A stretch of DNA of 64,000 bases from Alphaproteobacteria bacterium. Its GTDB lineage: Bacteria > Pseudomonadota > Alphaproteobacteria > UBA828. The DNA is taken from positions 608,001 to 672,000 of the forward strand of contig OZ243972.1 in assembly GCA_965214705.1 (NCBI GenBank). Reading direction: 5' to 3'. Position 1 is the first letter of the stretch. Every line of letters starts with the position of its first letter. The notes beneath the pieces are model-generated. The model did no database searches. It was not told the DNA's origin and saw nothing but the letters and a program-made list of their open reading frames with translations. Both the position numbers and the translations under genes were made by a program. Below, piece after piece: positions 6,517 through 47,528 of the stretch.

Positions 6517-6735
6517 TCAACCCTCGAGGGCTGCGCCGACAACGTCCACCGCCTCGCGCACCATGGCGTCGGACAGGTGGATGTACTTCAGCGTCGTCGC
6601 CGGATTGCGGTGTCCGAGAAGCCGGCCGATGGTCAGCACCGTCTCGCCCTGCGCGAGCGCCATGCTGGCATGCGTGTGTCGGAGATCGTGAAGGCGGACA
6701 TCGTGCAGGTCAGCTTCTTCCCTTACACGATGCCA
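6517..6735 (-). pseudogene. 3' part of the split outer integrase A
   Basis: WHRVREEADLHDVRLHDLRHTHAS...LLGH...TTLKYIH...; continues in frame from the 5' part at 47528-46614. Confidence 0.9.
6724..6735 (+). repeat. attL core direct repeat TACACGATGCCA
   Basis: Identical to 46614-46625; encodes W-H-R-V on the minus strand in both halves of the split gene. Confidence 0.9.
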
Positions 6736-6853
6736 CGCACCTTCGGTTCTAAGTGACTGATTCGATTGCAATGGTCTTCCGTTTCTATTGCCACAGGGCG
6801 CGGAATGCAAGCCCGTTCCGCACCCCGCTGCAACAGATCGGAGACGCGCGATC

Positions 6854-7981
6854 ATGCCGACCATCCACCTCACCCAGCGCCGGGTCGACGCCCTTCGGCC
6901 CCGCCGCAAGGTGCGCGATGTCCGGGACGCCGAACTCAAGGGATACGGCGTCCGGGTCATGCCCTCCGGCACCAGGCGCTACTTCATCCACAGCCAGCAC
7001 AGGGGCAAACGGGTCTGGAAGATCATAGGCGACGCGGCGGCGATCACCGAGCCCGAAGCACGGGCCAGGGCCAGATTGATGCTGGCTGCGCTGCGCGACG
7101 GTCGGGAGCCAGATGCGGCGGACGCCGGCGGCACCCTCTTCGAGACCGTCGCCGAGGAGGTCTTCGAGCGCTACGGGCGGCGCTGGAAGCCCCGCACCCT
7201 GGAAGTGAACCGGGCCTACCTGCGAAGGCAGATACTGCCTTTCTTCGCGGGCAGGCCCATCGGAGAGATAACACGGGAGGACGTGCGGGCCTGGTTCCGC
7301 GGGCTCCACGCGACGCCCGCCGCCGCAAACCGCTCGGCGCCCATCCTCTCGGTCATCATGCAGCAAGCCGAGGTCTGGGGATACCGCCCGGAGGACAGCA
7401 ACCCCTGCGCCGGCATCCGTCGCTACCGGCAGGGGCGGTCCGAGCGCTTCCTCACCCCCGAGGAGTATCGCCGCCTCGCCTGCGTGCTCACCCGGCACGA
7501 GGCCAGCCGCCCCCTGCACGTGGCCGCCCTGCGCCTGCTGCTGCTCACCGGGTGCCGCAAGTCGGAGATCCTCACCCTCCAATGGTTCTCCTACCGGGAG
7601 GGGCGGCTCTATCTGCCGGACAGCAAAGTCGGCCCGCGCACGGTCTGGTTGTGCGAGGCGGCACGCGATGTCCTCGACCGCCTGCCCCGGTCGTCCGGAT
7701 GGGTCTTTCCAGTCGGCGGTTTGCGCACCCCGTGGCTGTGGCTGGATTACTTCTGGCGCGGCGTGAGGGAGGAAGCCGGGCTGCAGGATGTCCGCCTGCA
7801 CGACACCAGACACTCATACGCCAGCATGGCGCTGCTCTGCGGCGAGAGCGTGCGCACCGTCGGCCGCCTGCTCGGTCACGAGAAGGCGTCGACCACCCTG
7901 AAATACGCCCACCTGTCCGACGCCACAGTCCGCGAAGCGGTCGAGACCCTGTCTCCCGTTCTGTCGGGGAGGCAGGCGTGA
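6854..7981 (+). CDS. Tyrosine integrase A of inner element
   Basis: 375 aa from ATG 6854; arm-binding N-terminus (DAELKGYGVRVMPSG); TGCRKSE, DSKVG, HDTRH, LLGH, TTLKYAH. Confidence 0.92.
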   Translation: MPTIHLTQRRVDALRPRRKVRDVRDAELKGYGVRVMPSGTRRYFIHSQHRGKRVWKIIGDAAAITEPEARARARLMLAALRDGREPDAADAGGTLFETVAEEVFERYGRRWKPRTLEVNRAYLRRQILPFFAGRPIGEITREDVRAWFRGLHATPAAANRSAPILSVIMQQAEVWGYRPEDSNPCAGIRRYRQGRSERFLTPEEYRRLACVLTRHEASRPLHVAALRLLLLTGCRKSEILTLQWFSYREGRLYLPDSKVGPRTVWLCEAARDVLDRLPRSSGWVFPVGGLRTPWLWLDYFWRGVREEAGLQDVRLHDTRHSYASMALLCGESVRTVGRLLGHEKASTTLKYAHLSDATVREAVETLSPVLSGRQA

Positions 7982-9150
7982 AGGGGCGGAGGGTCCGACT
8001 GACCGACGCGGGCGTCGGCAGGTTGAAGCCGGGCACCACGGAATACGCGGTCTGGGACAGCGAGGTGTCCGGCCTCGGCGTGCGGGTGCGCCCATCCGGG
8101 CATCGCAGCTTCGTCTGGCACGGGCGCGTCCGGGGAGAGCCGGTCAGAGAGACCGTCGGCCCGGTCGCGCTCATGACCGTCGAGGACGCCCGGAAGGAGG
8201 CCCTGGCGCTCCGCCTGGGAACCGCCCCGCGCGCGGCGGAAGGACGTTCCGGCGTACAGCTGTTCCGCGACTTCGTCCTCGATGAGTGGTTGCCAGCGTA
8301 CCGCCGCCGCTGCGCGCCATCGTCCTGCCAATTCGCCAATCGTGTGTTGGAACGGCAGCTGATCCCCGCCTTCGGCCGCCTCCCGCTGGACGCCATCCGG
8401 CGTATCGACATCGAACGATGGTTCGACGCCTACAGCCGCACCGCGCCGGGCGGAGCCAACAAGGCGCTCGAGATCCTCGGCCAGATCATGAACGCCGCCC
8501 TCGCCGCCGGCCATGTCGGGACCGCTCCCGTCAAGGGCATCGCCAAGAACCCCCGCCCGAAACTCACCCGGTTCCTCTCCGCCGAAGAGATCGAAAGGCT
8601 TCACCGCGTCCTTGATCGGCAGGTCAGTGAGCGGCCCTCCCGCCGGCAACAGGCCGACGTCATCCGGCTACTTCTGCTCACTGGCTGCCGGGTGGGCGAG
8701 ATCCTGAAGCTCCGATGGTCCGAGGTCGACGGTGACCGCCTCGATCTCGCCGACACCAAGACCGGGCCGCGAAGGGTCTGGTTGAGCCAAGCCGCGCAGG
8801 CCATCCTCGCCCGCCAGCCGCGTGCCGCAAGCCCTTACGTGTTCCCGTCCCGGAGGCATCCCGACAAGCCGCTCTCGCACTCCCTGTGCCTCTGGCGCCG
8901 GGCACGGAGGGAGGCCGGGCTCAGCGACGTCCGCCTGCACGATCTCAGGCATACCGTAGCCAGCCAGGCCGTCGCCCGGGGCGTTCCCCTGTCCACCGTG
9001 GCGGGCATGCTCGGCCACGCCGATCCCACAATGACCCTGCGATACGCCCATGTCGCCGATCGCGACCTGCAGGCCGCCGCCGAGCGCATTGGAAAGAGCA
9101 TTGAGGCCGCAATGGCGGGTGGCGAGCCGCCGGCAGAAGCGTCGTCCTGA
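7978..9150 (+). CDS. Tyrosine integrase B of inner element
   Basis: GTG start overlapping the intA stop (GTGA); VKGRRVRLTD...WDSEVSGLGVRVRPSG; TGCRVGE, KTG, HDLRH, MLGH, MTLRYAH; clear homologue of 5347-6513. Confidence 0.92.
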   Translation: MKGRRVRLTDAGVGRLKPGTTEYAVWDSEVSGLGVRVRPSGHRSFVWHGRVRGEPVRETVGPVALMTVEDARKEALALRLGTAPRAAEGRSGVQLFRDFVLDEWLPAYRRRCAPSSCQFANRVLERQLIPAFGRLPLDAIRRIDIERWFDAYSRTAPGGANKALEILGQIMNAALAAGHVGTAPVKGIAKNPRPKLTRFLSAEEIERLHRVLDRQVSERPSRRQQADVIRLLLLTGCRVGEILKLRWSEVDGDRLDLADTKTGPRRVWLSQAAQAILARQPRAASPYVFPSRRHPDKPLSHSLCLWRRARREAGLSDVRLHDLRHTVASQAVARGVPLSTVAGMLGHADPTMTLRYAHVADRDLQAAAERIGKSIEAAMAGGEPPAEASS

Positions 9151-9214
9151 AGACACGATGTGCGGGCAACAGTTCGACGTCCACGACCGTGAATTCAGCG
9201 TGTGTCAGAGAACG

Positions 9215-9350
9215 AATTCGGCACTTTCGTTGGAGCAGAGTGTCCGAGTCGAGGGCGGCAGTTTCGCCGAGCATGCTGACAGCGGTGGCGAAGCACACGG
9301 TATGCCCCTCCAGGACGGCGCGGTGACTGATATTGGCGGCGATGGTGGAC
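9215..9350 (-). pseudogene. IS21-family IstB ATPase internal fragment
   Basis: KSTIAANISHRAVLEGHTVCFATAVSMLGETAALDSDTLLQRK resembles the IstB segment just after Walker A. Confidence 0.55.
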
Positions 9351-9616
9351 TTAGGCTGCCGCCAGGATGCGCCGGAACAGGAAGGCGGCATTGCTACCGA
9401 ACACAGCCTCGAGTGTCAATCGGCTTTCAAAATTGACCCCCTATCGGCGTCCAAAATTGACCCCCCTGAGTGGCACGTCGGAGGTTGTCCCGGTAGCCAA
9501 TAGGGGGGACCCGCGCGGCTTCGCGTAGCGCTCGCCGCTACGCGGAGCGAAGCCGCGCGGGGGGTCCCTGTTGGCCCACCGGGGCAAGCGGGCCGCAGGG
9601 GAGGCCCGCGTTGGGG

Positions 9617-10345
9617 TCAGGAGCGGTTCTTGAAGCGCCAGCTCTCGTTGCCGGTCTCGATGATCTCGCAATGGTGAGTGAGACGATCGAGCAGGGCCGT
9701 GGTCATCTTGGGGTCGCCGAAGACGGACGGCCACTCGCCGAAGGCGAGGTTGGTGGTGATGATGGTGGAGGTGCGCTCGTAGAGCCGGCTCATGAGGTGG
9801 AAGAGCATCTGCCCGCCGGTCTGAGCAAAGGGCAGGTAGCCGAGTTCGTCGAGGATGACGAAGTCGCGGCGGCCGAGCTGGTCTGCGGTGCGGCCCTGGC
9901 GTCCGGCGCGGACCTCGGCCTCGAGGTGGTTGACCAGGTCGACGACGTTGAAGTACCGGCCGCGCGCGCCCTTTCGGATGCAGGACCGCGCGGTGGCTGT
10001 GGCAAGATGGGTCTTGCCGGTGCCGGTACCGCCGACCAGGACGATGTTGCGCTTGCTCTCCAGGAAGCCGCCCGTGGCGAGCTCCCGGATCAGGGGCTCG
10101 TTGACCGGCGAGGCGGCGAAGTCGAAGTCGGCCAGCTCCTTGGCGGTGGGCAGCTTGGCGGAGGCCATCTGGTACTTGATCGAGCGCGCCTTCTTGTCGG
10201 CGATCTCGGCCTTCAGCAGCGCACCGATGATCTGCTGCACCGGGTGACGGCGCTTGAGGCCGTCGGCGAGGATGTCGTCGTAGACGGCGCGCATGCCGGC
10301 GAGCTTGAGCCGGGTCATCATCTCCAGCACCTCATGACGCTCCAT
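9617..10345 (-). CDS. istB: IS21 helper ATPase
   Basis: GGTGTGKT Walker A, ILDELGY, TTN, LDRLTHH. Confidence 0.95.
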
Positions 10346-11849
10346 GACCGGCCTCCCTCAGGCTGTCGTAGCGCTGACAATCGGCAACCGGGGTGTGGCG
10401 AAGCTGCAGGCTCTCGGGCGTCGGAATGTCTGCCGGCGGCGCCGGCTCACGCTGCCGGGCGAGGATGTTGAGCACGACGTCGGCACTGCAGACACCATCG
10501 GCCAGCGCTTCGGCACAGGCCGCGTCTACCGCCTCCAGCCCGTCCTCCAGAACCGCTGCGAGGATCCTCACGATCTGCCTGTCGCCGTCGTCGCGGCCGG
10601 AAAGCCGGCCGCGCATGCGCCCCAGCGCGCCGGGCAGGTCCCAGTCCTTGAAGGGCGCGCCGTTGCGCAGCGCGCCGGGCTTGCGCTCCAGAACCGGCAC
10701 GTAATGCCACGGATCGTAGGCGATCTCCCCGCGCCCGAAGCGCCGGGAATGTTCAGCGACGGTCTCGCCATCCTGGCGGATGACGATCCGATCGGCATAG
10801 GCCCGCACATCCACAGGCTGCCCCACCGCGCGGGCGGCGACGCTGTAGTGGTTGTTGTCGAAGCGCACCAGACAGGTCTTGGAGACAGACGCGCCATTGG
10901 TGGCATGGAAGCCGTCGAAGGGGCCGCGGTAGGCCATCAGGAAGCGCTGCTCCTCCTCGAACACCTGCCACACCGTCTTGCCCGCAATCGTCGGATGCGG
11001 CCGCTTCTTGGCGTCCTCGATGCACCGATCCATAAGCCAGGCGTTGATCTCGTCGTAGGAGCGGCCCCGCGGGCTGGGCACGAACATGCGGCCGCGGACG
11101 TGGTCTACCTGCTTCTCGACCTGACCCTTCTCCCACGCCGCGCCAGGCGTGCAGGCCACCGGCTCGACCAGATGATGCGAGCACATCTCAAGGAAGCGGC
11201 GGTTGAAGACGCGCTCCTTGCCCACGAACACTGTCTGCACCGCCGTCTTCATGTTGTCGTAGATGCCCCGGGTGCAGACCCCGCCGAAAAAGCGGAAGGC
11301 ACGATCGTGCGCCTCGAACACCATCTCCTGACCTTCGCGGGGAAAGATCTGGACCAGATACATCCGGCTGTGGCACAGCCGGATGTGCGCCGCCTTCACC
11401 CGGGTCGTGGTGCCAGACAGAACCGCGTACTCGTGGCTCCAGTCGAACTGGTAGGCCTCGCCGGGATCGAAGACCAGCGGCACACAGGCCTCGGACGGCG
11501 TCAACAGCCGCCGCCGACGCCGCCAGGCCTTGGCATAGCGGCGTACCGCGTCATAGCCGCCCTCATAGCCCAGCGCCGCAAGGCCCTCATGAAGCCGCAG
11601 AAGAGACAGCCGATCACGGCGCTTCTTCTTCTCGTTGGCCTCCAGTTGCCGCTCAAGCTCGTCCACCCACGGCCCCAGCTTCGGCATCGGCTGGATCGCG
11701 CGCTCGTAGCTCGACGAGGTCTCGTCGCCGCGCAAAACCTTGCGCACCGTGTTCCGGGAAACCCTCAAATCCCGAGCGATCTTCTTGATCGGAACGCCCT
11801 TCACGAAATGATCCCGACGGATCCGTGCAATCGTCTCCACAGTCAGCAT
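10332..11849 (-). CDS. istA: IS21 DDE transposase
   Basis: N-terminal HTH; [24 protein letters not shown]. Confidence 0.95.
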
Positions 11850-12559
11850 CTCCCCCTCGCCTCGTCCGTCCAACGACGAGGCGTGTTCATGGTCACCAAT
11901 CCAAGGGGGGTCAATTTTGGACGCCGATCACCCCCAAGAGGGGGGCACTTTTCCACGCTTAACAACAGCCTCGAGGATGTGCGCTTCGTCCACGATCAGC
12001 AGATTCAGGCGCGCGAGGAACCGCTTGAAGGCGGGAACGGCGAGGTTGCGCATCAGCCACGCGTGACCGACATCTGGAGTGGCGATGACGATCCGCGCCC
12101 TCTCAAGCGCTTCCTTGCGATCCGGTTGCGGCACGTCGCCGGTGACGATTGCAATCCACTCCCCGGGCATCCCCGCCATCTCGAGAGCCCGCCGCCAGCT
12201 TACATCCTGGTCGGCCGCGAGCGCCTTGAGCGGATAGAACACCAGGATCCGGGCATCACCGTCATCCTGAAGCGTCTTGAAAGCCGCGGCCTGGAACACA
12301 AGCGACTTGCCAGACGCGGTTCCCGTTGAAAGCACCACGTTGCTGCCGGCCGCAAATGCTTCCAGTGCGAGGGCCTGATGCCGCCAGAGAGCGCCTTTGA
12401 GCGCGTCGTACGCCAGTAGCCAGCTGCTGACGGAGCCTCTCCGGCAAGTATCCGGGACTGGCAAGATCCTCTCTTCGCGCGCCGATAGCTCAAGCCGAGC
12501 GACGACGGAGTGACCCGCGTCCCTCAGTTGTCCCTCGAATACCTCAACCCAAGTTGGCA

Positions 12560-12745
12560 GTGCGCCGTGGAAAGGCGCTCTCTTTCAGCGGGTGCGAATC
12601 CCGCCCGACAACTGTCGCTCCGGTTGGTAGCAGCCAGGGCGGTTCATGGAGGTGACGACATGGGCTGAAGCACCTTGGTGGAAAAGGGCCACCATTGGGT
12701 GGCTCAGCGACCGTGCGGGCCGGAACGTGAGTGAACGCAGCTTAG
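12560..12745 (+). mobile_element. Group II intron 5' fragment (part of domain I), truncated
   Basis: Begins GTGCG (GUGYG consensus) exactly where the helicase frame ends; CGCTCTCTTTCAGCGGGTGCGAATCCCGCCCG, GGTGAC...TGAAGC and AACGTGAGTGAAC resemble bacterial IIB intron domain I; no RT ORF or domain V. Confidence 0.7.
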
Positions 12746-14224
12746 CCAGGGGCCGCGCCACCACCGTCGAAGAGCACAAACCGAAGGCGCACCAACGCGC
12801 CGGCGTCGAGGCCACCCGCGCCCAGCTGGAGAAGAACGCGCGCGATATCGGGCCCCATGTCCACGCCTACATCGTCGCGCTCATGAAGCGGCAGAACAAT
12901 CCGGAGTTCGGCTTCCGTGCCTGCTACGGCGTCCTCCGGCTGGCCAAAAGCTACGAGCAGGACCGCTTCGACGGCGCCTGCCGCTACGCGCTCGAACTCG
13001 GCACGCGGAGCTACCGCGGGCTCGAGAACATCCTGCGCACCGGCGCGGACCGCGCCGCCGCCGAGCAGGAACCCGAGACCATGCCCATCGATCATTCCAA
13101 CATCAGAGGACCGGAGGCCTACCGATGACCGAAAACCCCGTCTCCCACCCGCTGGCCGAGCGCATCGCCTCGCTGCGCCTGCCAGGCATGCACGCCGCCT
13201 TCCTCGAGCAGGTGGCGCGCAACGACCTCGACGACATGCCCTTCGAGGATCGGCTCGCGCTGCTGATCGATCGCGAGATCGCCGAGCGCCGCTCCAGGGC
13301 CCTGCAGCGGCGCCTCAAGAGGGCGCAGCTGCGCCATCAGGACGCCTGCTTCGAGGATATCAACCTGAGCCGTCCGCGCGGCCTCGACCGCAGTCTCGTG
13401 CTCGGCCTCGCAGACTGCGCCTGGGTCCGCAACGGCGCCAACATCCTGATCACTGGACCGTGCGGCACGGGCAAGAGTTGGATCTCCTGTGCCCTTGGCC
13501 ACAAGGCCTGCCTCGAGGGCCACATCGCCCAGTACCACCGCGTGCCCAGGCTGCTCACCGAGCTGCGCATCGCCCATGGCGAGGGCACGACCCCGAAGCT
13601 CTACCGCGACCTCGCCCGCATTGAGGTGCTGATCCTCGACGACTGGGGCATCGCGCCCATTGATGCGGCTCGCGCGCGCGATCTCCTCGAAATCCTCGAC
13701 GACCGCTTCGGCCGGCGCTCGGTGATCGTCACCAGCCAGTTGCCGGTGGCCGATTGGCACCGCCAGCTCAACGATCCCACGGTCGCCGATGCCATCCTCG
13801 ACCGCCTCGTCCATGGTGCCATCCGCATCGAGCTGCACGGCACGTCCATGCGTATCGACGACGCTGCCGCAGGGAAAAAGGCATGAACGCGACTACAGAG
13901 CGCCGCGCTGCGCGCGGCGTGATCGTCGCTCCGCTCCGGGGCGTCGGAGGGGCGGGACGGATGGTGCCAGGCATGGCGCGCGCGCCGCCAGACGCGTGAG
14001 ATGTCTCACGCGCCGCGCGCGCACCATGCTCCACCGCCTTGCCACCGGGCCTTCGGCGGTGGTACCGATCACGGAGAAATCGCGGAGGGAGAACCGCCCA
14101 CAAAAACGTAACCGCGTCGCTTCGCTCCGGGGTGGCTACTTTGCTGAGATCGGGTGGCTACTTTGGATGAGATTCGCCGGCTACTTCGGGTGAGATTCAC
14201 CGGCTACATTGGTGAGACTGGGCA
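12746..14224 (+). mobile_element. Truncated second IS21-family element (istA 3' end, istB, right-end repeats)
   Basis: IstA C-terminus (FRACYGVLRLAKSY...HSNIRGPEAY) ending 13128; four ~23-bp GGCTAC(T/A)T...TGAGA repeats at 14130-14220 typical of IS21 ends. Confidence 0.85.
13125..13886 (+). CDS. istB: IS21 helper ATPase
   Basis: GPCGTGKS, LILDDWG, TSQLPV, ADAILDRLVH. Confidence 0.93.
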   Translation: MTENPVSHPLAERIASLRLPGMHAAFLEQVARNDLDDMPFEDRLALLIDREIAERRSRALQRRLKRAQLRHQDACFEDINLSRPRGLDRSLVLGLADCAWVRNGANILITGPCGTGKSWISCALGHKACLEGHIAQYHRVPRLLTELRIAHGEGTTPKLYRDLARIEVLILDDWGIAPIDAARARDLLEILDDRFGRRSVIVTSQLPVADWHRQLNDPTVADAILDRLVHGAIRIELHGTSMRIDDAAAGKKA

Positions 14225-14317: not shown

Positions 14318-17300
14318 TCAACTGTGGAGCTTGGGAATCCGTCCATGCTCGAGCAACTCAAATGCTTCGAGCACGTAGCGCTGCGTCCGATACTCGCCGA
14401 AAGCCCGCATTTCGTTCTGCTTGAGGGATGGGAAGGATGAGCTTGGTGCCTGTGCATCCAAGATCCACTCGAGATCGGAACGAGTGATCCCGTACATCTG
14501 AGCAAAGATCGCATCCAATTCGCAGCGGAGACCGTGGCGGCGGTCATCATTCCAAGAAAATGGCGGCCCATCAAAACCAAGATCGTTGGCGAAGCTCCTA
14601 ATTTCCTCGGATGTATAAGTCAATTCCAAAACCCGCGGAACTATAAGTTGGACGTACGGATGGCCGGTGCTGCTTTCCCTTAAGTACGCATTTGGCGGCA
14701 AGAGAGGAAGTTGCTTGAGAATGAAAAAATTCATGTGGACACCACCAACGGAAAAGCGTGCGGCCCAGTCGAGAGGGAGACTGTTCAGATTTGCCAGTAT
14801 CAATGCAGATGAGATTGAGCGACCGAAGGCGTATTCTATCGTTGGGGCACTATTGCCCAAACCGCTTTTGGGCGCATTTGCTGTGACAAGAGTCCGTTCG
14901 TTTGTGGCGTTCGTAATGTCGCGAAACGCGTGAAACCACCTCGCAATTTCCGTTCGAACGAGGGGCCCTCCGTCGCTCACAGCTGCGGCTCGCAGGAAGG
15001 TGGCGATGGATGTTCGTTCGTTGGTTGCGTTTGTAACTTTCCTGAATACGAGGATCCAACTGTAATCACTACCGCTGTATTGCCCACTGCTGCAATCGGA
15101 ATCATGGCTACGACCCCAGTCCGTTGGTCGGTCGCTCGGACGATATCCCGAAGAGTGAGTTGCGAGCCAGTTCCGTAAGAGTGTCGAATACAGCTCGGCT
15201 CGGCTCGGCTCGGCTCGGCTCAACAATTGCGTAGTGTTTCCGCTTATGTCAAGTCTTTCCGCAACTTCTTCTTCCGGAACCCAGTATCTCGGAGTGGCGA
15301 CCGCGGACGGATCGGACTTCTCGTCCGCCGTCATCGGTCTGGCATTTCCGTTTCGGATGTCACGGTCGGAGACGCCGTCGAATGTGGCAAACCTGTGGTC
15401 GTACTGATGGAAGAGCTTCGCCTCATAGAGCGGCAGATATCTCTCGTCGCCTCGGACGAACACGTTATTGTCGAGTTCCCATCCTTCCTCCTCCATTTCC
15501 TGTCGGGTCTTGAACAGACCCGAGTCGTTGGACATATCGAACATACGCTGGAAACTCACGCCCCACGGGTTCTTTTCGGGCTGAGAACCGGTGGTTTCCT
15601 TCCAGAACACTCCGGCTCTCCGGTACATCTTGCGTGCGATGTCCATGTCTCGTCTCGTGCGGAAGATTGGGCAGGTCCGGGTGTTGGGGTTGAACAGCGA
15701 GAAGTCTTCGGCGCTGAGCGTGAAACGTCGCTCGGGTTCCTTTAATTGCTCCGCCTGATGCAGGAAGAACGCGAACTCGGCTTCAGGTACGGGGTTGCCC
15801 TTGCCGCTCAATGCGAGGAGGCAGAACTTGATCCTGCTATCAATGCCTGGGAAGACTTTCTCGCGGTTCTCAAAGTCATACAGGCTGACAAGCCGTGACT
15901 GGGTTACGGTGTGCTCGAAGAACGCCCTGGTGGAGTGGTCCGTGGCGATGCCCGTGGGCACGATCAACCCGGCCCGGCCCTGAGGCTTGACAAGCTGCAG
16001 GAACGTCTCGGCGAAGACGGCATAGGTGTTCAGGTCGCCGACGCCAGTGAGCGGGTATCGGCCTGCGGTCCGGGCAAACTGGGTCGTCGCCTCGGCTTCC
16101 CGCTTTGCGGCTTCAAACTCCTGGTACAGAGCTCTTTCCGCCGGGAGCGCGTCATCGCGATTCAATTGTTGGATGAGACGATCACGCGCAGCCTTGTTCG
16201 GCGCCGCTGCGATCTCCGGGGAACGAGAAGCGAAAAACTCCTGCTCCTGCAGCTTGATGCGTTCCCACGGCGGGTTTCCGAGAATAGCGTCGAATCCGCC
16301 GTCCTGCATGATCTCGGCGAACGCGAGATGCCAGTGATGAAAGCGGTAGGTGTGGCTGAGGTCTCGGACAAGGTTTTCGACACCGGGGCGCCGTGGGACG
16401 TTGCGGTCGAGGCGATCGATATCCTCGCTGAGAGGCACGATGTCGAGGCTGTCGCGCGTCTTTGGCGCGAAGTACGTCCCGACGAAGAGGTCGGCGCGCA
16501 TGGCCTCGCGGGCGCGGGTCTCGTCGCGCAGCACGGCATGCCAGGTCGCGCGCTTGCGCTCCACTTCTTCCAGTGTTTCCTCGGGCATGGCGTCCAGGTC
16601 GAGGCTCGAGATGGCGACCTCCATGACGGCATCCTGATCGAAGAGGCCGCGTTGCCCCCGATGCCGGTTGTTCCTCTTGAGGTCCCTGCAGACGGCCTTG
16701 TCATCGCCAGTCAAGGGCTTGTATGCGTCAGGAGTAACGCCGTTCGCCATGATCTCGGGATCGAGAATGCCGACCAGGCTGTCGCCCTGAAGGATGTGGG
16801 GATCGAGGAACGTGAGCGGCTTGCCGGGCTCGACCGTCTCCATCCAGAGCGCAGTCTTGCAGAGTTCGACGGCGAGCGGGTTCCGATCGACGCCATAGAT
16901 GCAGTGCTGGACCACCTCGCGCAGCGCGTGCTGGCGGGTACTTTCGTCCGACGTGTCCGCGCCGGACTCGATACGGGCGATCTCGGCGGCAAGGCGGCGG
17001 GCCGCAGCCAGCAGGAAATGCCCGGAGCCGCAGGCTGGGTCGACCACCTTCAGGTCGAGAATCGCGGCGCGCGGATCCTCGGGGCGTGCTTTGACGGCGT
17101 CCGCGATAACGGGGTCGAGCGTCGACTTGATGAGCTCGCTGACCAGCGACGGCGGCGTGTAGTAGGAGCCGGTGAGCTTTCGCTCGGACCCCTTGGCGCG
17201 TTCGCCATTTCCTTCACCGGTGAAGGCGAATGTCCAGGGCGAGGCGTCCACGTCGATGACCGGACGAAGCTCCAGAAGGCTCTCGTATACGGAACCCAAC

Positions 17301-18568
17301 TCCTCCGTATCCATGTCCCGGTAGTTGACGCGGGCGAGGCTGTTGCCGGAACGGAAGAACGCGAGGGTGCGGACGGCTTTGAGAAGATGATTGTTGGCGA
17401 TGGCGGCACCGTCGAGGTCGGGACATTCGCCGTCTCGGAACAGGCCACCGAGTGGCGGCAGCCCCAGTCCAGGAGCGCCCTGGGCTAGCGCGCCAAAGGT
17501 GATCTGAAGCCCTTGCCAGAGGTCGCGGTTCTCGTCGTAATGGCGGCGGCGCAGCGCGCGCTCGCGCAGCCGCGAGAGCGCGTAGCCGTTCACGAACACT
17601 GCTCTTTGTTCGTCCGCGGCGTCCGGCGCGTGAAGCAGGTTGCGCTCCTCGGCGGTGAAGAGAAAGAGCAGGCGATAGATGAGCCGAAGGAGCTGCTGGA
17701 AGTAGAGCTCCGATGAAAGCGCGCCGGTTTCGAGCGCTTCGCGCAGCTCGGTGTTCGCCGGATGGCGAAGGAACCCGTTTCCGATTTGACGCAGCGCGTC
17801 GGTGACGCCGTCACGGAGATTCTCCCGAATGCGTTCACCGGTCTCCTGCGCCTTGGCCCGCCAGGACTCGATGATGCAGCTCGACGGCTTGTCGTCGAGG
17901 GGCCGGAGGCGGCTTGAATGGGCGGTGAGCCAGAGGGCGGCGAAGTCGGGGTAGAGCTCTTCCGCGAAGACGAGGTCAAGGTCGGCCTCGATGTAGGACG
18001 GCCGGGTCAAGCTCGGATTGTCGCGCAGGATCCGGAGCTTGGAACCGTTGGAGATCATGCCCCACAGCGCAGCGTCCTCGGCATTGAGGTACTCCTGCAT
18101 CATGCCCTGTGGCGCCTGCCGTCGGCCGTCGTGACCGAGACGCGGATCGGCCCTGTCGAGGTCAAAATCGTGCGTGACGAGCAGCAGCGGCACGGCGCCT
18201 TCGCAGGCGCGGTGTGTCAGCCGGAACACGCGGCCTTCCAGCACGACGCTGTCGGCCGCTATAAGATCGTCGTAGCCGAGGAGCGAACGCAGGAAGGGGA
18301 CGAGCCATTCTTCGACGTCGACCTGGGGCGCGGTGAGATCCCGGCGGGGACGGCGCTCTGAATAGCGTCCGTAGAGATCGTTGGCGATGCGCCAGTAGCG
18401 GGCAAGCTCCTCCTTGATTGCAAGCGATTTCGAGAGGCCGTAGTCGGCGCCGGTCTGACGGGAGGCTTCCAGCGCGGCGACAGCGTGCAGGAATTCCGAG
18501 GGGAGGATGCCCCCTTCAATCTTCAGGGCCGTGAAGCCGCGGCTAGCTCGGACGTTCGCCATGGTCAC
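14318..18568 (-). CDS. N6-adenine DNA methyltransferase (DrmMI/Type IIG-like) with internal SSR and triplicated TRD segment
   Basis: GSYYTP, DPACGSGHFL, GNPPW; N-terminus lacks an obvious PD-ExK; start overlaps the SNF2 stop (GTGA); SRAEPSRAE encoded by the SSR. Confidence 0.9.
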   Translation of the reverse strand: MTMANVRASRGFTALKIEGGILPSEFLHAVAALEASRQTGADYGLSKSLAIKEELARYWRIANDLYGRYSERRPRRDLTAPQVDVEEWLVPFLRSLLGYDDLIAADSVVLEGRVFRLTHRACEGAVPLLLVTHDFDLDRADPRLGHDGRRQAPQGMMQEYLNAEDAALWGMISNGSKLRILRDNPSLTRPSYIEADLDLVFAEELYPDFAALWLTAHSSRLRPLDDKPSSCIIESWRAKAQETGERIRENLRDGVTDALRQIGNGFLRHPANTELREALETGALSSELYFQQLLRLIYRLLFLFTAEERNLLHAPDAADEQRAVFVNGYALSRLRERALRRRHYDENRDLWQGLQITFGALAQGAPGLGLPPLGGLFRDGECPDLDGAAIANNHLLKAVRTLAFFRSGNSLARVNYRDMDTEELGSVYESLLELRPVIDVDASPWTFAFTGEGNGERAKGSERKLTGSYYTPPSLVSELIKSTLDPVIADAVKARPEDPRAAILDLKVVDPACGSGHFLLAAARRLAAEIARIESGADTSDESTRQHALREVVQHCIYGVDRNPLAVELCKTALWMETVEPGKPLTFLDPHILQGDSLVGILDPEIMANGVTPDAYKPLTGDDKAVCRDLKRNNRHRGQRGLFDQDAVMEVAISSLDLDAMPEETLEEVERKRATWHAVLRDETRAREAMRADLFVGTYFAPKTRDSLDIVPLSEDIDRLDRNVPRRPGVENLVRDLSHTYRFHHWHLAFAEIMQDGGFDAILGNPPWERIKLQEQEFFASRSPEIAAAPNKAARDRLIQQLNRDDALPAERALYQEFEAAKREAEATTQFARTAGRYPLTGVGDLNTYAVFAETFLQLVKPQGRAGLIVPTGIATDHSTRAFFEHTVTQSRLVSLYDFENREKVFPGIDSRIKFCLLALSGKGNPVPEAEFAFFLHQAEQLKEPERRFTLSAEDFSLFNPNTRTCPIFRTRRDMDIARKMYRRAGVFWKETTGSQPEKNPWGVSFQRMFDMSNDSGLFKTRQEMEEEGWELDNNVFVRGDERYLPLYEAKLFHQYDHRFATFDGVSDRDIRNGNARPMTADEKSDPSAVATPRYWVPEEEVAERLDISGNTTQLLSRAEPSRAELYSTLLRNWLATHSSGYRPSDRPTDWGRSHDSDCSSGQYSGSDYSWILVFRKVTNATNERTSIATFLRAAAVSDGGPLVRTEIARWFHAFRDITNATNERTLVTANAPKSGLGNSAPTIEYAFGRSISSALILANLNSLPLDWAARFSVGGVHMNFFILKQLPLLPPNAYLRESSTGHPYVQLIVPRVLELTYTSEEIRSFANDLGFDGPPFSWNDDRRHGLRCELDAIFAQMYGITRSDLEWILDAQAPSSSFPSLKQNEMRAFGEYRTQRYVLEAFELLEHGRIPKLHS
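15193..15221. repeat. Pentanucleotide SSR (GCTCG)5+GCTC, i.e. (GAGCC)n on the coding strand
   Basis: Read directly; lies in the MTase coding sequence just upstream of the repeated TRD segments. Confidence 0.95.
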
Positions 18569-21423
18569 AGGGATGCCATGGGCATGAAGACGTACACGCC
18601 GATTTTGTCGACGGGTAGTGCCGGAACGACGTCGTAGCGCAGCCCCCTGGCGTCGCTCGCCTCGCGGACGCGGCGATGGTCTGCGAGCAACCCGCGGGCC
18701 TGCTCATGGGCAACGCGTGCGAATGCGTCTTCCATCCCCGGCAACGCGTCGAGGGCCTGCCGTACGAGGTGGACCTTCTGGCCGTCCGCCATGTTTCGTC
18801 CGGGCTCCAGCGTGAGAAGCGACAACGCGTCGTCCTCGGTCATTATTTCGGGACTGGCGCCGCCCCGGACCGCAACGCCCAGACACTCCTCGGCGAGAAG
18901 TGACCTGAGCGGCGAGAAGCGGCCGTCCGGCCCGCGCCGCTCTATCTGGAGTTGGCAGCGCAGGCGCAGGAGATAGAGCACGGTGCGGGTGTCGACCGCG
19001 CGCGTGAACATCGCCCCCGCGCGGGCGCCGATTTTCGGATTGGTAGCGTCGAGCGCCTTCTCGGCGACATAGTCCGCCAGCACTGCCACAAGCGGATGCG
19101 CACGGTGGATATAGTCCGCACCGGCCGGGGCGGGCTGGGCGAAAGCGATCTTCGCCGATGCATCGAATCCGATGGCGTCGAGACGATCCTGAAGGGGCTT
19201 CGGGAAATGAACGACCGGCATCCGGCAATAGCCGTCCCGTCGGTCAATAGCAGCGCCCAGGCGCTCTGCGGACAGACGCACGAAGCGGTCGACATCGCTG
19301 GGACCGCCCAACACCGATACGGCTTTGCGCCATTCGGGAAGCACGTCGTCCGGGGTCAGGCGGCGCTGGGCGAAGACCGTGCGCGTCATCCGGTTGCTGG
19401 CCGTGCGCCATGCGTCGTCCACTTCGGTCTCGGTCTCGGCGAATTCGAAGGCCATTTGGTCGGCCCGGGAATGTCTGCCGCGGTGAAGCAGGACGGCCTT
19501 CATGATGGCGTCGATCACCTTGTTGTTGTCCGCGGGCAAGGGCACGGCGACGCCGAGTTCCTTGCGGATCTTTTCGGCCTTGCGAAGGATCACGCGGAGG
19601 ACGGCGCCGTCGACGGGATTGTTCTCGCCGTAGAGCATGAGCGCGCGAACGGTGCGGGAAGCTTGGCCGAAACGGTCGGCTCTGCCCTCGCGCTGTTCGT
19701 GGCGGGTCGGATTCCAAGTGAGGTCGTAGTGGACCACGGCGTTGAAGTGGTTCTGGAGGTTGACACCTTCGGACAGGCAGTCAGTGGCAACCAGGACGGG
19801 CGTAATCTTCTCATCGAGTTCACCGAGCGCCTCGACCCGCTCTTCGCGTTGATCGGAAGTGAGCTCCCCGGTGACCACGGCGACATGGGCATTTCCGGCA
19901 CCCAACGCCTGCTTCAGTTCGTGGCCAACATAGTGCGCGGTGGCGATGTAGCGGCAGAAGACGACGGGCCGGAAACCGTCGAGCACGAGCCGGCCGACCT
20001 CGTCGATCAGCGCCGTGAGCTTGGGATCGTTCCTCGGACCGCGCAACGAATCCGCCCGGTCGATGAGCTGGCGCAGGGCCTTGGCATCCTCGGCCTCGAC
20101 GGTGCCGGCGGGAACGCTCTCGGTGAGGGCGAGTGAGTCGTCGGCCGTCTCGTCCATCACGGTTTCGCCTGCCTTCCGGTCCAGGTGTTCGACCTGCGCA
20201 TCCTCCGTGTCGCCCTCGGTTGCCTGGAGACGGGTTCGAAGCGCGAGCGACGCGGCGGCCGGGCTTGAGGAAGCGCAGCGCAGCAGCGCGAGCGCGGCCC
20301 ACCAAGACATTCGTTGCTGAAGCCTGGTCCCTTCCGAAGTGCGGTCGACCATGGTTCTTGCGTAGTCGAGGACGTCGTCGAACAGGCCGCCCCATTCGCC
20401 GGTCAGGCGGTAGGTCGCTTCCCGGCTTTCGCGGACCGGAAAGCCTGCCTCGTCCTTCCACTCGGCGATGTCGCCGCGTCGGCGCTGCACGAAATGCAGC
20501 GCGAGTTCTTCGCGCAAGCGGCGGCGCATCTCGCCTTCGGGTGCGTCGGCCAACGCCATGAATTTCGTTTCCAGCAAGCCAAGCAGGTTGTGAAAGGCGG
20601 TGTCATCGCCCGAATGCGGTGTCGCGGTGAGGAACACCATGTGCCGGCGCGGCTCGCTGCCCGCGAGGCCTTTGAGAAGCTGGTAGCGCTGGTGTCGGGT
20701 ATCCGTGTTCGATCGCACGCAGGCGTGCGCCTCGTCGACGATGACGAACTCCGGGCAGGCGCGAAGGAAATCGCTGCGGCGCCGATCCGACTTGATGTAG
20801 TCGAGGGAGACGACCGTATAGGGATGCACCTCGAACACTGACTCATCCGGGCGAAGACCCCGCTCCAGGCGGGTGGCGGTGCCGGTGCGCACGACCTCGG
20901 CGTCGATGGCGAACTTCTCCGAGAGTTCCCGTTGCCACTGTTCGCACAGGTGGGGCGGGCAGATGACGGAAAGGCGCTCGATCTCGCCCCGGTCGAGCAG
21001 TTCCCGCGCGATCAGGCCTGCCTCAATGGTCTTGCCGATACCGACGTCGTCGGCGACGAGCAACCGGATGGTGTCGAGCTTCAGGGCCATGAGCAAGGGA
21101 ACGAACTGATAGGCGCGCGGTTCGACATTAAGATTGCCGAAGCTGCGGAAAGGTCCCGCGCCGGCACGCAACTTGAGGCGAAGCGCGTCGCGCAACAGCA
21201 GCGCTGCCTGCTGGGAGCCTGGCGCGTCGGGATTGGGAAGATCGAACGTCGCGGGCACCGGCGCCTCGGGTTCGAGCGGAAGGTAGATGAGCGTCGCATC
21301 GTCTTCCGCGCCGCCGAGCGGACGAAGCTTGAGGAGATCGTCGCGCGGCTCGGGGAGGACCACCCACTCGCGGTGCCTCGCCCTGACTAGGTCTCCCGGC
21401 ATGAAGGTGATCGCCGCGTCCAT
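18565..21423 (-). CDS. SNF2-family helicase (DrmD-like)
   Basis: ADDVGIGKT, IVDEAH, LTATPH, SEGVNLQ, WNPTRHEQREGRADRFGQ; PGDLVRAR..EWVV N-terminus. Confidence 0.92.
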   Translation of the reverse strand: MDAAITFMPGDLVRARHREWVVLPEPRDDLLKLRPLGGAEDDATLIYLPLEPEAPVPATFDLPNPDAPGSQQAALLLRDALRLKLRAGAGPFRSFGNLNVEPRAYQFVPLLMALKLDTIRLLVADDVGIGKTIEAGLIARELLDRGEIERLSVICPPHLCEQWQRELSEKFAIDAEVVRTGTATRLERGLRPDESVFEVHPYTVVSLDYIKSDRRRSDFLRACPEFVIVDEAHACVRSNTDTRHQRYQLLKGLAGSEPRRHMVFLTATPHSGDDTAFHNLLGLLETKFMALADAPEGEMRRRLREELALHFVQRRRGDIAEWKDEAGFPVRESREATYRLTGEWGGLFDDVLDYARTMVDRTSEGTRLQQRMSWWAALALLRCASSSPAAASLALRTRLQATEGDTEDAQVEHLDRKAGETVMDETADDSLALTESVPAGTVEAEDAKALRQLIDRADSLRGPRNDPKLTALIDEVGRLVLDGFRPVVFCRYIATAHYVGHELKQALGAGNAHVAVVTGELTSDQREERVEALGELDEKITPVLVATDCLSEGVNLQNHFNAVVHYDLTWNPTRHEQREGRADRFGQASRTVRALMLYGENNPVDGAVLRVILRKAEKIRKELGVAVPLPADNNKVIDAIMKAVLLHRGRHSRADQMAFEFAETETEVDDAWRTASNRMTRTVFAQRRLTPDDVLPEWRKAVSVLGGPSDVDRFVRLSAERLGAAIDRRDGYCRMPVVHFPKPLQDRLDAIGFDASAKIAFAQPAPAGADYIHRAHPLVAVLADYVAEKALDATNPKIGARAGAMFTRAVDTRTVLYLLRLRCQLQIERRGPDGRFSPLRSLLAEECLGVAVRGGASPEIMTEDDALSLLTLEPGRNMADGQKVHLVRQALDALPGMEDAFARVAHEQARGLLADHRRVREASDARGLRYDVVPALPVDKIGVYVFMPMASL

Positions 21424-21440
21424 TTCCTGTCCTCCAGATC

Positions 21441-32522: not shown

Positions 32523-32534
32523 CGTCAATTCCTC

Positions 32535-32895: not shown

Positions 32896-32920
32896 CGCTT
32901 ATGCACGAAGCTCCGGTGAA

Positions 32921-35336: not shown

Positions 35337-35400
35337 CGCGCTTGACCGCTCCGCCTTTCTGGAAGTGCGGCTGCGGTGATGGCGAAGGAGACGGACCGGA

Positions 35401-35882
35401 TCAGATCGGCGGAACCATAAGGCGCATCAGTTGGCTGGCCGCCAGCACGGTCATGCCGAACATGAGGTGGGCGAGAACCTTGTCGTAACCGCGCACGCGG
35501 ACATGGCGGCCGCCGAACTCATCCTTCAGCCGCCCGCTGATCCGCTCGGACCCCGAGCGCACGACGTAGCGACGCTCCTCGGGAAAGACCAGACCGAGCG
35601 TCCGCCGCGCCTTCTTCTCACGCTTCAACGCCTCTTGCATGTCGACCGAGCTGCGCGGGTTCACGTCGATGATCGGCTTGTGGCCCAGCAAGATGCTGTG
35701 CGCCCAGATCTCGATGCAATCATAGGCCGCGTCCATCAGGTCATAGAGGCTCTCGACCCGCCCGGCCGTCAGGGTCCCCAACGGAATCGCCACCTGGGAG
35801 TCATGCGTCGACGCAGACGTCATGATGCAGCTGATGGGGACCCCGCCATCGGCGGTATCGACGTGCAGCTTGTACCCGATCC
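35401..35882 (-). pseudogene. DDE transposase C-terminal fragment (IS4/IS5/IS1182-like)
   Basis: WIGYKLHVD...SASTHDSQ...LMDAAYD...ERISGRLK; N-terminal half absent. Confidence 0.75.
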
Positions 35883-36006
35883 AGGAGCTGAGTTGCGCCG
35901 CGCTGATTGACACCGCGCCGCCCTGCGTCGACAGCCAGGTACCCAACTCGAACCAGTTTCGGTTTTTCACCACGACTTCTCCATCGCCCCGTTATGATCT
36001 TGCGTC

Positions 36007-45144: not shown

Positions 45145-45645
45145 TCAGAACAGCTCCTTCTGACCGGAGTCGCCGACCCTTTTCTTGCGGCGTGCCGGCT
45201 TCTTCGGTTTCTGCGCCGCTGCCGGCGCCGTCCGTACAGTCGGCATGAATGCGGCGGCGATGATCGCCGCCCGCTCGTCGCCGAACACTTGTCCAAGGAG
45301 CGCCTCGGCGTCACTGCCCCGGCCCTGCCGGACCATCGTCTCAAGCCGCGCCTTCAGCAGCGCGCCGAGGTCGTCCGTGACCTGCGAAGGCGCGTCGATG
45401 TCCGAGCGCAGGCTCCGGGCATGCTCGCTCACGGCCCGAGACACGGACTTCTGCTGTTTCTCGTCGAGCACCAGCCGGCGATGCTTCCGCGGAAGGAGGT
45501 CCACCGTCAATGCGCAATGGACCACCCAGGCCGACACCGACATTCCGGCCTGGTCCGCCCCAGATTGCACGTCGGCCCACTCCTCGTCGGTCGCGGAAAT
45601 CGTTTGTTCGGTCCCCGTCCTGCGCACGCGCGGCTTCCTCATCAC
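45145..45645 (-). CDS. Ribbon-helix-helix MobC/TrwA-like protein
   Basis: TISATDEEWADVQSGADQAGMSVSAWVVHCAL. Confidence 0.72.
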   Translation of the reverse strand: MMRKPRVRRTGTEQTISATDEEWADVQSGADQAGMSVSAWVVHCALTVDLLPRKHRRLVLDEKQQKSVSRAVSEHARSLRSDIDAPSQVTDDLGALLKARLETMVRQGRGSDAEALLGQVFGDERAAIIAAAFMPTVRTAPAAAQKPKKPARRKKRVGDSGQKELF

Positions 45646-45965
45646 CCCCGTGCCTCTTCGCAGAGCAGCAGAAAGCGCACCACTTCATGGATCGCCAGGA
45701 TCGCCTTCCCGCCGTCCTGCGCATCGACAACGATGCTCTTCGACCGGGCAAGAACGCGGCTGTCCTCGTAAAGGCGACGCTGCGCATCCTCGGCAAGCGC
45801 CAGCGGGTGACCGGGCGGCTCCGGAGGAGCGCCCGCGCTCGCAACCTGGCGGCAGCACAGAATGATCAGACGCGAGAGCGGCATCCCCGCCTTCTTGGCC
45901 CGCCGCCGCATCTTCTCTCGCTTCTCTGGGGAGCAGTAGATGCAGCGCTTCTTCGCGAGGTTCAC
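45642..45965 (-). CDS. Ribbon-helix-helix MobC-like protein
   Basis: IYCSPEKREKMRRRAKKAGMPLSRLIILC; stop overlaps the next start. Confidence 0.68.
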   Translation of the reverse strand: MNLAKKRCIYCSPEKREKMRRRAKKAGMPLSRLIILCCRQVASAGAPPEPPGHPLALAEDAQRRLYEDSRVLARSKSIVVDAQDGGKAILAIHEVVRFLLLCEEARG

Positions 45966-45978
45966 GGCACCTTCCGCT

Positions 45979-46311
45979 TCATCCCAGATCGCCCTCGCCC
46001 TTGATCCAGGCGTCCACCTTGCCCACCGCCCTCTGCCACAGCTCTTCGCCCATCTCGCCGTCGTTCGCGAGCCGCAGCCGCTGCAGTTCTTCGAGGATCA
46101 ATACCGCCTTCACCGCTCGCTGCAGCACCGGCGAGGGCAGACCGACATCGGTCGGTTCGGCCCGCGCCTTGCCGTCGAGGCAGCACCGGATGACGTAGTC
46201 GGAGTTCGACAATCCCGCCGCTTGCGCGCCTTCGCTGATCTCGGCCCACTCGGCATCGGTTGCACCGACCCAGCGCTGCTTCCGCTTTTCGCCCTTTTGT
46301 CTCGCCGGCAT
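45979..46311 (-). CDS. Ribbon-helix-helix MobC-like protein
   Basis: VGATDAEWAEISEGAQAAGLSNSDYVIRCCL. Confidence 0.72.
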   Translation of the reverse strand: MPARQKGEKRKQRWVGATDAEWAEISEGAQAAGLSNSDYVIRCCLDGKARAEPTDVGLPSPVLQRAVKAVLILEELQRLRLANDGEMGEELWQRAVGKVDAWIKGEGDLG

Positions 46312-46471
46312 CGGCCCGTCCGCGTCGCTATGGAGAAAATCCGATATCGCCCGCTAATGCACCACTATAACCATACGTCTCGAATATCTACCTTCGGCCC
46401 TCATCCCATCAGCCGCAGAATACTGCGCACATGATGGCCTCTTCAACACCCGAGCGTCACGGTCGCAACAG

Positions 46472-46511
46472 GACAGACAATTCCTGCCATGGCGACATGA
46501 CAGACAATTCC
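46472..46511. repeat. 13-bp direct repeat GACAGACAATTCC in candidate oriT/attR region
   Basis: Copies at 46472-46484 and 46499-46511 in a lower-GC non-coding stretch between the RHH genes and attR. Confidence 0.7.
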
Positions 46512-46613
46512 ATGGTTGACTATACGATAACCCTATGATATACAACACGAGAAATGGAAAACCATCGCATATCGTGTCAGCCTACGAACCACCGATTCGT
46601 CGTTGAAAGTTTC

Positions 46614-46625
46614 TACACGATGCCA
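46614..46625 (+). repeat. attR core direct repeat TACACGATGCCA
   Basis: Identical to 6724-6735. Confidence 0.9.
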
Positions 46626-47528
46626 GACGCTGCCAACCGACGCTGCATGCAGGAGGCCGTTCCTTGGCGAGGGGAAAACCCAGACGGCAGTGCGGGGCAG
46701 GCCGTCGAGGATGGCGCGCGCGGGGGACGAGAGCCAAACCGTGCGCGGCCCGACCTTGCTATCCGGGAGGAACAGCTTGCCCTCGCGGTAGTAGCGCCAT
46801 TTCAGGGTGACGATCTCGCCCTTGCGGCATCCAGTGAGCAGCAGCAGCCGAATGATCGCCACGGCCTGCGGGTGGTCCGCCTCATGGCTCGCCAGCACCG
46901 AGCCCAAGCGACTGACTTCGGCCGTCGACAGGAAGCGCTCGCGCCCTCGGCGCCGGTACCTCCTGATGCCCGCGCAAGGGTTTGTCCGCTCGGGCCGGTA
47001 GCCGTAGACCTCGGCCTGGCGCATGATGACCGAGAGGATGGGGGCCGAGCGGTCAGCAGCTACGGGGGTCTCGTGAAGAGAGGCGAACCACTGTTGGACA
47101 TCACGGGCAGTGATGCCGGTTATCGAGCGTCCCTCGAACCAGGGCAGGATCTGCTTGCGGTAGTAGCCTTGGTTGACCTTGAGCGTGGACGCCTTCCAGT
47201 TCCGGGCGTAGCGGCGGAAGACTTCGTCGGCGACTGTCTCGAACGGGGTGTCAGGCACCGCCGCAGTCTCATCGGCTGTTCCCGTCCGGATGGAGGCCAG
47301 CATGGCCCTGGCCCGCTCACGGGCCTCGTTCACGCCGATGGTCCCGGCTTGGCCGAGCATCTTCCAGGTTCGTCGACCGTCGTGCTGGCTGTGGATGAAG
47401 TAGCGCTTGGCGCCCGAGGGCAGAACCCTGACGCCGAAGCCCTTGAGTTCCCGGTCTCGGATGTCGTATGCGGCCCTGCGGGGCTTGAGCGCATCGATCC
47501 GGCCTTGGTTGAGACGAAGCGTTGCCAT
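46614..47528 (-). pseudogene. 5' part of the split outer integrase A
   Basis: MATLRLNQ...DRELKGFGVRVLPSG...TGCRKGE...DSKVG...VWHRV, then unrelated sequence; lacks HxxR and Y, which lie at 6517-6735. Confidence 0.92.

Follow-up and report, generated by a model that had tools for sequence, protein, structure and literature searches.

How does an integrase gene come to lie in two pieces about 40 kb apart, with an intact integrase gene of the same type between them? This question is raised by a window of 64,000 nucleotides (positions 608001-672000 of contig OZ243972.1, called C1 below) from an alphaproteobacterial genome of 7.92 Mb in three contigs (G000). An earlier note on this DNA, made from its letters alone, read the arrangement as one mobile element inserted in the integrase gene of a relative. 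Our analysis confirms that a 40-kb mobilizable island really is nested inside the recombinase gene of a related island. We consider it probable that the inner and outer islands are integrative mobilizable elements (IMEs) of one abundant family with tandem integrase genes, intA and intB, and that the inner one arrived by a recent secondary-site insertion at a look-alike core, with no demonstrated regulatory role. The nesting has the appearance of an incidental landing and not of a built-in switch.

The two joints are sharply defined. On the minus strand, the open reading frame (ORF) at 46533-47528 is integrase-like up to ...GSVWHRV and continues into unrelated sequence. The integrase picks up again at 6735 with WHRVREEADLHDVRLHDLRH, in the minus-strand ORF at 6517-6972, and stops at 6517; a complete intB (6513-5347, minus strand) comes right after this 3' part. 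Both joints fall on a 12-mer direct repeat, TACACGATGCCA, which in the raw sequence is the antisense of the W-H-R-V codons at each of them. There is no third copy in the window at up to one mismatch; the expected count is 0.13, and two or more copies occurred in 2 of 100 shuffles. With one repeat copy counted, the insert runs from 6736 to 46625 (39,890 bp). Joined at the repeat, the N-terminal part (301 codons) and the C-terminal part (72 codons) give 373 amino acids, aligned end to end with the inner IntA (375 amino acids) at 62% and 65% identity, respectively. A tRNA or non-coding RNA target was ruled out for either element, as ARAGORN and Rfam found neither at the junctions.

Uninterrupted versions of the split gene are present in the same genome. 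The unbroken paralogue at C1:3355432-3358069 matches window positions 46615-47914 at 93.5% over 1301 nt and 5387-6735 at 96.4% over 1349 nt. Where these alignments meet, the paralogue has the 12-mer just once, with one base changed. A second paralogue, on contig C3 (C3:2068579), holds the exact empty-site sequence of 18+12+18 nt (48 nt identical). The nearest relatives of both halves of the outer intA are the same two genes: amino-acid identity to them is 91.7% in each case for the N part, and 100% and 98.6% for the C part, while the next closest sequences reach 79% (N part) and 87.5% (C part). The halves therefore do not group with different integrase lineages, which was one of the outcomes that would have undone the earlier note. 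Coordinates, repeat, colinearity and unbroken paralogues all agree with its claims that a 39.9-kb insert splits an integrase gene at a 12-bp repeat, and that the joined halves form an in-frame protein colinear with the inner IntA and followed by intB. None of the other 20 genomes of the genus has the window junction, so the insertion appears recent and local. As a separate observation, the outer IntA N part (46626-47528) is more diverged from the two paralogues than either the C part or IntB (96% and 95%); a mosaic or gene-conversion boundary may lie near the insertion site of the outer intA.

The proposal that excision rebuilds intA holds for the joint, which is in frame and identical to the natural C3 paralogue, whereas excision itself is a predicted event. 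Contigs of four public runs were compared with window positions 44500-48500, and some have loose ends at 46614 that read like an empty site. They are uninformative on excision because the C3 paralogue carries the identical empty site. An excision-controlled switch or dedicated competition, as suggested earlier, thus finds no backing in these contigs, which the paralogue explains.

Judged by its genes, the inner element fits the definition of an IME, as first proposed. Its intA and intB begin 118 bp from the left end, the 12-bp att repeat is perfect, and a TrwC/MobF relaxase gene (36007-41448) and NikA-like genes are present. Genome-wide scans with PF03135, PF02534, PF10412 and PF12846, other families of the type IV secretion system being unsearched, left C1:597,587-655,649 unmatched for VirB4 or a coupling protein. 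Possible helpers, with TrwB and a VirB4-like AAA_10 gene, exist elsewhere in G000. The inner intB probably starts at a GTG at 7978, overlapping the intA stop. At the right end, a 13-mer, GACAGACAATTCC, occurs twice (46472 and 46499), 27 bp apart, and is a candidate arm site; the final bases, TTCT-ACACG, are common to two sibling elements. Both inner ends match those of orthologous and sibling elements; the left motif comes immediately after the repeat, and the right end reads TTCT-ACACG. The order of the NikA-like genes near this end is also found in sibling elements and in the outer element. The defence cargo is DISARM-like in its DrmMI-like, DrmD/DpdE-like and helicase+MZB proteins, with mixed best PADLOC names (DpdE, DruE). 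A DISARM system comprises DrmMI, DrmD, DrmA, a protein with DUF1998 and DrmC, which has a PLD domain; no PLD-domain protein was found among the ORFs scanned. Within the LysR-type ORF, ARAGORN placed a 93-nt tRNA-Arg(GCG) on the minus strand (41902-41994), probably a false call.

The outer element hosts the inner one, as the earlier note had it, and is not contained in the window. It carries a 12-bp repeat, CACACCGACAAG (minus strand), at 47650-47661, whose second copy lies 58,063 bp away at C1:597,575-597,586. The element is thus 58 kb long with its guest and 18.2 kb without it. It runs 10.4 kb to the left of the window, through three insertion sequence (IS) transposase genes, a 1028-amino-acid TrwC relaxase gene and two NikA-like genes. 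Beyond both copies of CACACCGACAAG lies one continuous 2.16-kb IS encoding a 654-amino-acid DDE transposase. Three copies of the outer lineage in G000 occupy the identical IS position; in two of them, each end was seen to have the 12-bp repeat, with the IS running on beyond it. The nesting therefore has at least three levels (IS, outer element, inner element), and the inner element in turn contains IS copies. The 2.16-kb IS itself is highly repeated in G000 (71 blastn rows at 99-100%, most spanning the whole IS).

By gene content, the inner and outer elements are members of one family, with tandem IntA/IntB, cargo, a MobF/TrwC relaxase, NikA-like genes and no recognisable type IV secretion system. 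Their relatedness, also part of the earlier claims, is seen in IntA (62-65%), in IntB (54% between outer and inner) and in the common end motif and architecture; the two integrase pairs lie in opposite orientation. The outer IntB is 96% identical in amino acids to its paralogue at C1:3356943. The suggestion that the inner element immobilises the outer one is doubtful, because two intact, near-identical IntA paralogues of the same att specificity (IS site and 12-bp repeat alike) could act in trans. To the right of the elements the context is ordinary chromosome, where a tandem glycine riboswitch (58475-58680, minus strand) precedes the gene for the glycine-cleavage T protein (57300-58451).

Features of the nested elements. 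Positions are those of the window unless a contig (C1, C3) is named.
Feature	Position	Strand	Basis or remark
Outer cargo within the window	1..5346	-	Pfam, PADLOC
DrmMI-like / type IIG methyltransferase, outer cargo	1007-5113	-	Pfam, PADLOC
Outer intB, 388 aa, intact	5347..6513	-	Pfam Phage_integrase, Arm-DNA-bind_3, SAM-like domains
Outer intA 3' part, 72 codons + stop, begins WHRVREEADL	6517..6735	-	100% aa identity to paralogue C3:2068597-2068812
Left copy of the 12-bp repeat TACACGATGCCA, attL core	6724..6735		Repeat search
Inner left end, opens with family end motif CGCACCTTCGGTTCTAAG, 118 bp before intA	6736..6853	+	Motif common to 39 element ends in G000 and to orthologues in other genomes
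Inner intA, 375 aa, intact	6854..7981	+	ORF, Pfam; orthologues elsewhere 89-94% identical
Inner intB, ~390 aa	7978..9150	+	ORF, Pfam; stretch scanned 7984-9150
Later arrivals in the inner element, overall block	9559..14223		Pfam, Rfam, repeat copies elsewhere in G000
IS21-family copy, istA/istB, inside inner element	9617-11873		Pfam, repeat copies
DEAD-helicase gene fragment, inside inner element	11928-12464		Pfam
Group II intron fragment, inside inner element	12586-12730		Rfam
Second IS21, partial, inside inner element	12736-14223		Pfam, repeat copies
DISARM-like defence trio, inner cargo	14318..26741	-	Pfam, PADLOC
DrmMI-like methyltransferase	14318-18568	-	Pfam, PADLOC
DpdE/DrmD-like SNF2 helicase	18565-21480	-	Pfam, PADLOC
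DruE-like DEAD helicase with MZB/DUF1998 domain	21441-26741	-	Pfam, PADLOC
IS cluster: two IS66-family copies, two DDE_Tnp_1-type IS copies, further fragments	26860..35973		Pfam; multi-copy matches elsewhere in G000, 86-100% identity
Inner MobF/TrwC relaxase-helicase, 1813 aa	36007..41448	+	Pfam TrwC E=7.8e-74; NCBIfam MobF 239 bits vs cutoff 100
LysR-type regulator ORF, inside inner element	41628-42641		
Three small NikA-like (ribbon-helix-helix) genes near inner right end	45145..46311	-	Pfam NikA-like, only 45979-46311 above curated cutoff
Inner right end, low G+C, TTTC immediately ahead of repeat	46300..46613	+	Sequence
Right copy of the 12-bp repeat, attR core	46614..46625		Repeat search
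Outer intA 5' part, 301 codons, ends ...GSV ahead of repeat codons WHRV	46626..47528	-	Alignment, Pfam
Outer intA-proximal end with family end motif CGCACCTTCGGTGCTAA (- strand)	47529..47649	-	Motif match
Last 265 bp of the interrupted 2.16-kb IS	47650..47914	+	Repeat copies; remaining IS at C1:597,575 and leftwards
Elements at D-x-K-T-G codons in G000	C1:1923058-1983299; C1:3009618-3077190; C3:225392; C3:2284482		

The family to which both elements belong was found in all 18 sampled genomes of the genus, a group of uncultured, sponge-associated Alphaproteobacteria in which it is abundant. Searches of sponge, coral and seawater metagenome runs gave small word shares, which are no evidence of habitat. 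In G000, tblastn detected 133 integrase-like stretches, 93 of them full length, covering 130 kb or 1.64% of the genome; many are intA copies, 57-92% identical. Intact pairs number 36: 24 IntA-IntB pairs of the first type and 12 of a second type, at about 40% identity. All four IntA and IntB proteins of the nest match Pfam Phage_integrase and Arm-DNA-bind_3 (a DUF4102-type arm), and the Arg, Lys, His-x-x-Arg, His and Tyr positions that we take to be catalytic are kept in the alignment of IntA and IntB. In other genomes, IntB lies directly behind IntA at each of the 26 loci with a full-length IntA. Mobilizable elements far outnumber their possible helpers in G000, with 36 TrwC relaxase-domain matches against 4 VirB4-like AAA_10 matches; PF03135 had no match anywhere in this genome. 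Pairs of the same family were also observed in L077, a chromosome-scale metagenome-assembled genome titled Vicinamibacterales, and in L072, a contig titled Amylibacter; either the family has spread outside the genus, or these records were wrongly binned or labelled.

The ends of these elements follow a common plan. In G000, the motif CGCACCTKCGGTKCTAA stands at 39 ends, some 105-120 bp ahead of intA, and for 13 of these ends a repeat of 10-12 nt was found 13.9-94 kb downstream, beside a low-GC right end. A basic element of about 2.5 kb, with intA and intB only, was first considered because paralogue similarity stops at the end of intB; this was dropped once the 10-12-bp repeats turned up 14-94 kb downstream. 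A core logo was built from the 16 bases ahead of the motif in 67 distinct flanks (G000 and other genomes). Positions -11 to -7 are A in 53, C in 56, A in 54, C in 62 and C/G in 60 of the 67; positions outside this A-C-A-C-(C/G) are variable.

Lineages of the family have their own insertion sites. For the inner lineage, 10 orthologous loci were found in other genomes (IntA 89-94% identical), eight at a hairpin resembling repetitive extragenic palindromic (REP) sequences, GTTTCCGT-TTCAC-ACGGAAAC, and two at TTGTGYCACACGTGCTC. Its three other copies in G000 sit at these same two sites. Integrase genes were hit at none of the 10 loci and by none of the three copies, which leaves 1 of 14 known copies, that of the window. 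These counts do not support a dedicated targeting of integrase genes by this lineage, and copies of its usual sites stand vacant in G000. The REP-like hairpin family, AGAGCGTTTCCGT-N5-ACGGAAACGCTCT, often followed by TTGTCGCTCACGGCAGCC, has 17 sites in G000 (for example C3:2033498) and is the usual att site of the inner lineage. Another lineage of the family has the flank GGAATACACCTTAAC both in G000 and at loci L070, L084 and L088. The site of a lineage is thus retained from copy to copy and from species to species, in keeping with homology-dependent recombination. An enrichment of the core motif in integrase genes was ruled out as the cause of nesting, since 1.65% of its sites lie in these genes, which make up 1.64% of the bases.

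The second-type pairs include a separate lineage with a more marked pattern. Eight second-type tandem-integrase elements sit directly after the D-x-K-T-G codons (catalytic lysine), GACAGNAAGAC, of eight different IntA, IntB or second-type genes. They span five genomes, with four in G000 and one each in L023, L027, L041 and L066. Among 30 second-type loci, five had, just upstream, the N part of an integrase that breaks off at residue 260-276; one locus has no upstream sequence. Both joints were mapped for two of the eight elements: one splits an intA (C1:1983299 / C1:1923058), and the other an intB (C1:3009618 / ~C1:3077190) with a perfect repeat, CGACAGCAAGAC. By coordinates, three of the four G000 elements hold genes for a TrwC relaxase, a TrwB coupling protein and a VirB4-like AAA_10 protein. 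Because of these genes, the elements, of about 60-67 kb, look self-transmissible, in the manner of an integrative and conjugative element (ICE).

How might such insertions come about? In the family, the two adjacent tyrosine recombinases IntA and IntB would drive integration, presumably acting together. The reaction would be a conservative site-specific recombination between the element site and a chromosomal site sharing a 10-12-bp core, the core being the likely crossover region. The element site would consist of the right end, the core Y-ACAC-(C/G) plus about six bases, and the left-end motif. One recombinase may serve each half-site of the asymmetric core (Y-ACAC / CGCACCTKCGG). This is by analogy with XerC/XerD at dif, where two paralogous recombinases each take one half of an asymmetric core; Xer proteins lack an arm-binding domain, in which they differ from IntA and IntB. 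The inner element, normally at the hairpin or the second site, would here have used the look-alike TACACGATGCCA and thereby split intA. Such an insertion would be tolerated because the gene that was hit belongs to a redundant mobile element. If the inner element can still excise, excision would restore intA exactly.

Several observations weigh against an incidental secondary-site insertion between two IMEs of one family, the reading that we hold to be probable. Vacant copies of both usual sites of the inner lineage are present in G000, which leaves the use of a secondary site unexplained. Siblings about 90% identical carry different 5-7-nt variable core parts, each a perfect repeat, and a strict homology rule does not explain this. 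No excision or circular product was seen among the contig matches listed for the four public runs. Moreover, integrase genes have been hit more often than chance would predict: 3 of the 39 family ends in G000 lie in them against 0.64 expected (P=0.026, rising to 0.14 if half of the genome is closed to insertion, and the copies are not independent). In G000, a 15.6-kb element occupies the E-Y-T-V-W codons of an intB in a repeat-bounded host element of 21.9 kb (C1:360465-382339), and another element lies at the catalytic-tyrosine codons of an intA (C1:3006934-3008808), its own intB being split by an ICE-like element. Family elements have also entered integrase genes in two other genomes, at the R-H-T-x-A codons of one intA and one intB. 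The family may therefore have a preference for integrase genes, since 3 of 39 exceeds 0.64 and two more cases occur elsewhere. These hits, together with the eight ICE-like insertions at D-x-K-T-G codons, would also suit a selected antagonism or switch, in which the guest disables its host element, rides along and re-arms the host on excision. We judge this unlikely for the window pair: the inner lineage entered an integrase gene in one copy of 14, the core motif is equally frequent inside and outside such genes, paralogous IntA genes could supply the lost function, and the identical vacant site in the C3 paralogue has gone unused. Excision itself, which would re-arm the host, is a prediction.

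The nest could also exist in no cell, if repeats had been misjoined during assembly. G000 is a repeat-rich metagenome-assembled genome in which integrase-like stretches number over 130 and IS copies come by the dozen; its estimated contamination is 8.7%, and contig support concerns the right junction only. There, a 357-nt contig with 0 mismatches in three public runs (possibly the assembly's own data) covers 46287-46643 and so extends 30 nt past the right junction, where the bridging rule asks for 31 nt. This contig nevertheless agrees with the assembly over the junction, and misjoins are expected within long shared sequence, not at a 12-mer, whereas each junction here coincides with a perfect 12-bp repeat, located precisely where elements of the family naturally end. 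We thus regard an assembly artefact as very improbable. Homologous recombination or rearrangement between related elements could have made the split instead of an integrase, given the many similar intA copies in G000, and it is hardly credible here. Indeed, only 12 bp are common at the joints, and the inner and outer intA are in opposite orientation and 62-65% identical. The breakpoints are conserved element termini rather than homologous gene positions, with no hybrid intA at the joints. Altogether, an incidental landing by site-specific integration is the explanation that we favor for the window.

Comparison with known systems refers here to excerpts of the cited papers. Nested 'Matryoshka' composites of ICEs and IMEs are known in Firmicutes, whose elements may have a single tyrosine integrase gene or two adjacent ones (PMC9585547). 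As in these, an element is inserted site-specifically in another, has its own att repeats and takes part in several nesting levels (PMC9585547; PMC12942858). The present case differs in its alphaproteobacterial host, in its target, the recombinase gene of a related element and not conjugation-module or other genes (PMC9585547), and in that host and guest are both of one IntA/IntB family. In SSV-type 'suicidal' archaeal integrases, integration likewise cuts an integrase gene and excision would rebuild it (PMC7253208). There, the element splits its own gene, with attP inside, whereas the guest intA is intact here, 118 bp inside the element, and the intA of another element serves as att site.

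Movement by more than one adjacent tyrosine recombinase gene is shared with Tn554, SEs, GInts and RIT elements (PMC10214605, PMC3414803). SEs are described with the order intA-tfp-intB-srap, one large recombinase and a 6-bp footprint without direct repeat (PMC10214605), and GInt and RIT with three recombinase-like genes. In contrast, the present elements have two abutting genes of ordinary size (375 and ~390 amino acids) with DUF4102-type arms, no gene between them and repeats of 10-12 bp, and lack a tfp/srap, ginC/ginD or tnpC layout. In place of the ritA, ritB, ritC arrangement of RIT there are two recombinases, and the next gene after the inner intB is the istB of an IS21, on the other strand. 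BIM, which combines one recombinase with a conserved non-recombinase partner with an SMC domain (PMC3414803), was rejected as the matching family because the second gene here is itself a full tyrosine recombinase. With the IntSXT subgroup, all four proteins share an N-terminal DUF4102 arm-binding domain and a catalytic domain (Pfam; PMC8138268). That subgroup is described as single integrases, usually at tRNA genes or conserved gene ends, unlike the junctions here, which have no tRNA. The limited set of literature searched contained no description of this IntA/IntB family, nor of integration into the integrase gene of another element.

Since nested integrative elements are already known, the nested pair alone is a modest addition. 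It is a clean natural case, where a single genome allows both att sites to be compared with an empty paralogous site and with the sites that the lineage normally uses. Greater novelty lies in the ICE-like lineage that seems to target integrase genes, and this lead most deserves to be followed. Of more use than the pair is the broader view: the family has a 5-base constant core, and at least one lineage appears aimed at a conserved catalytic motif of integrase genes. We tentatively suggest, as a possibility that falls short of a likely one, that in the genomes of these sponge symbionts the tandem-integrase elements form a guild in which each uses the recombinase genes of others as landing pads. 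In such a hyperparasitism, the ICE-like lineage would be specialised for the D-x-K-T-G codons (core CGACAGMAAGAC) of IntA, IntB and its own kind, and the pair in the window would be a looser instance. If the targeting is real, it would provide a testable case of mobile elements competing through mutual inactivation of their recombinases, and a pair of recombinases for which a short overlap sequence may determine the target. The arrival of a self-transmissible element would then disable the integrase of the very mobilizable element that it may later carry or mobilise.

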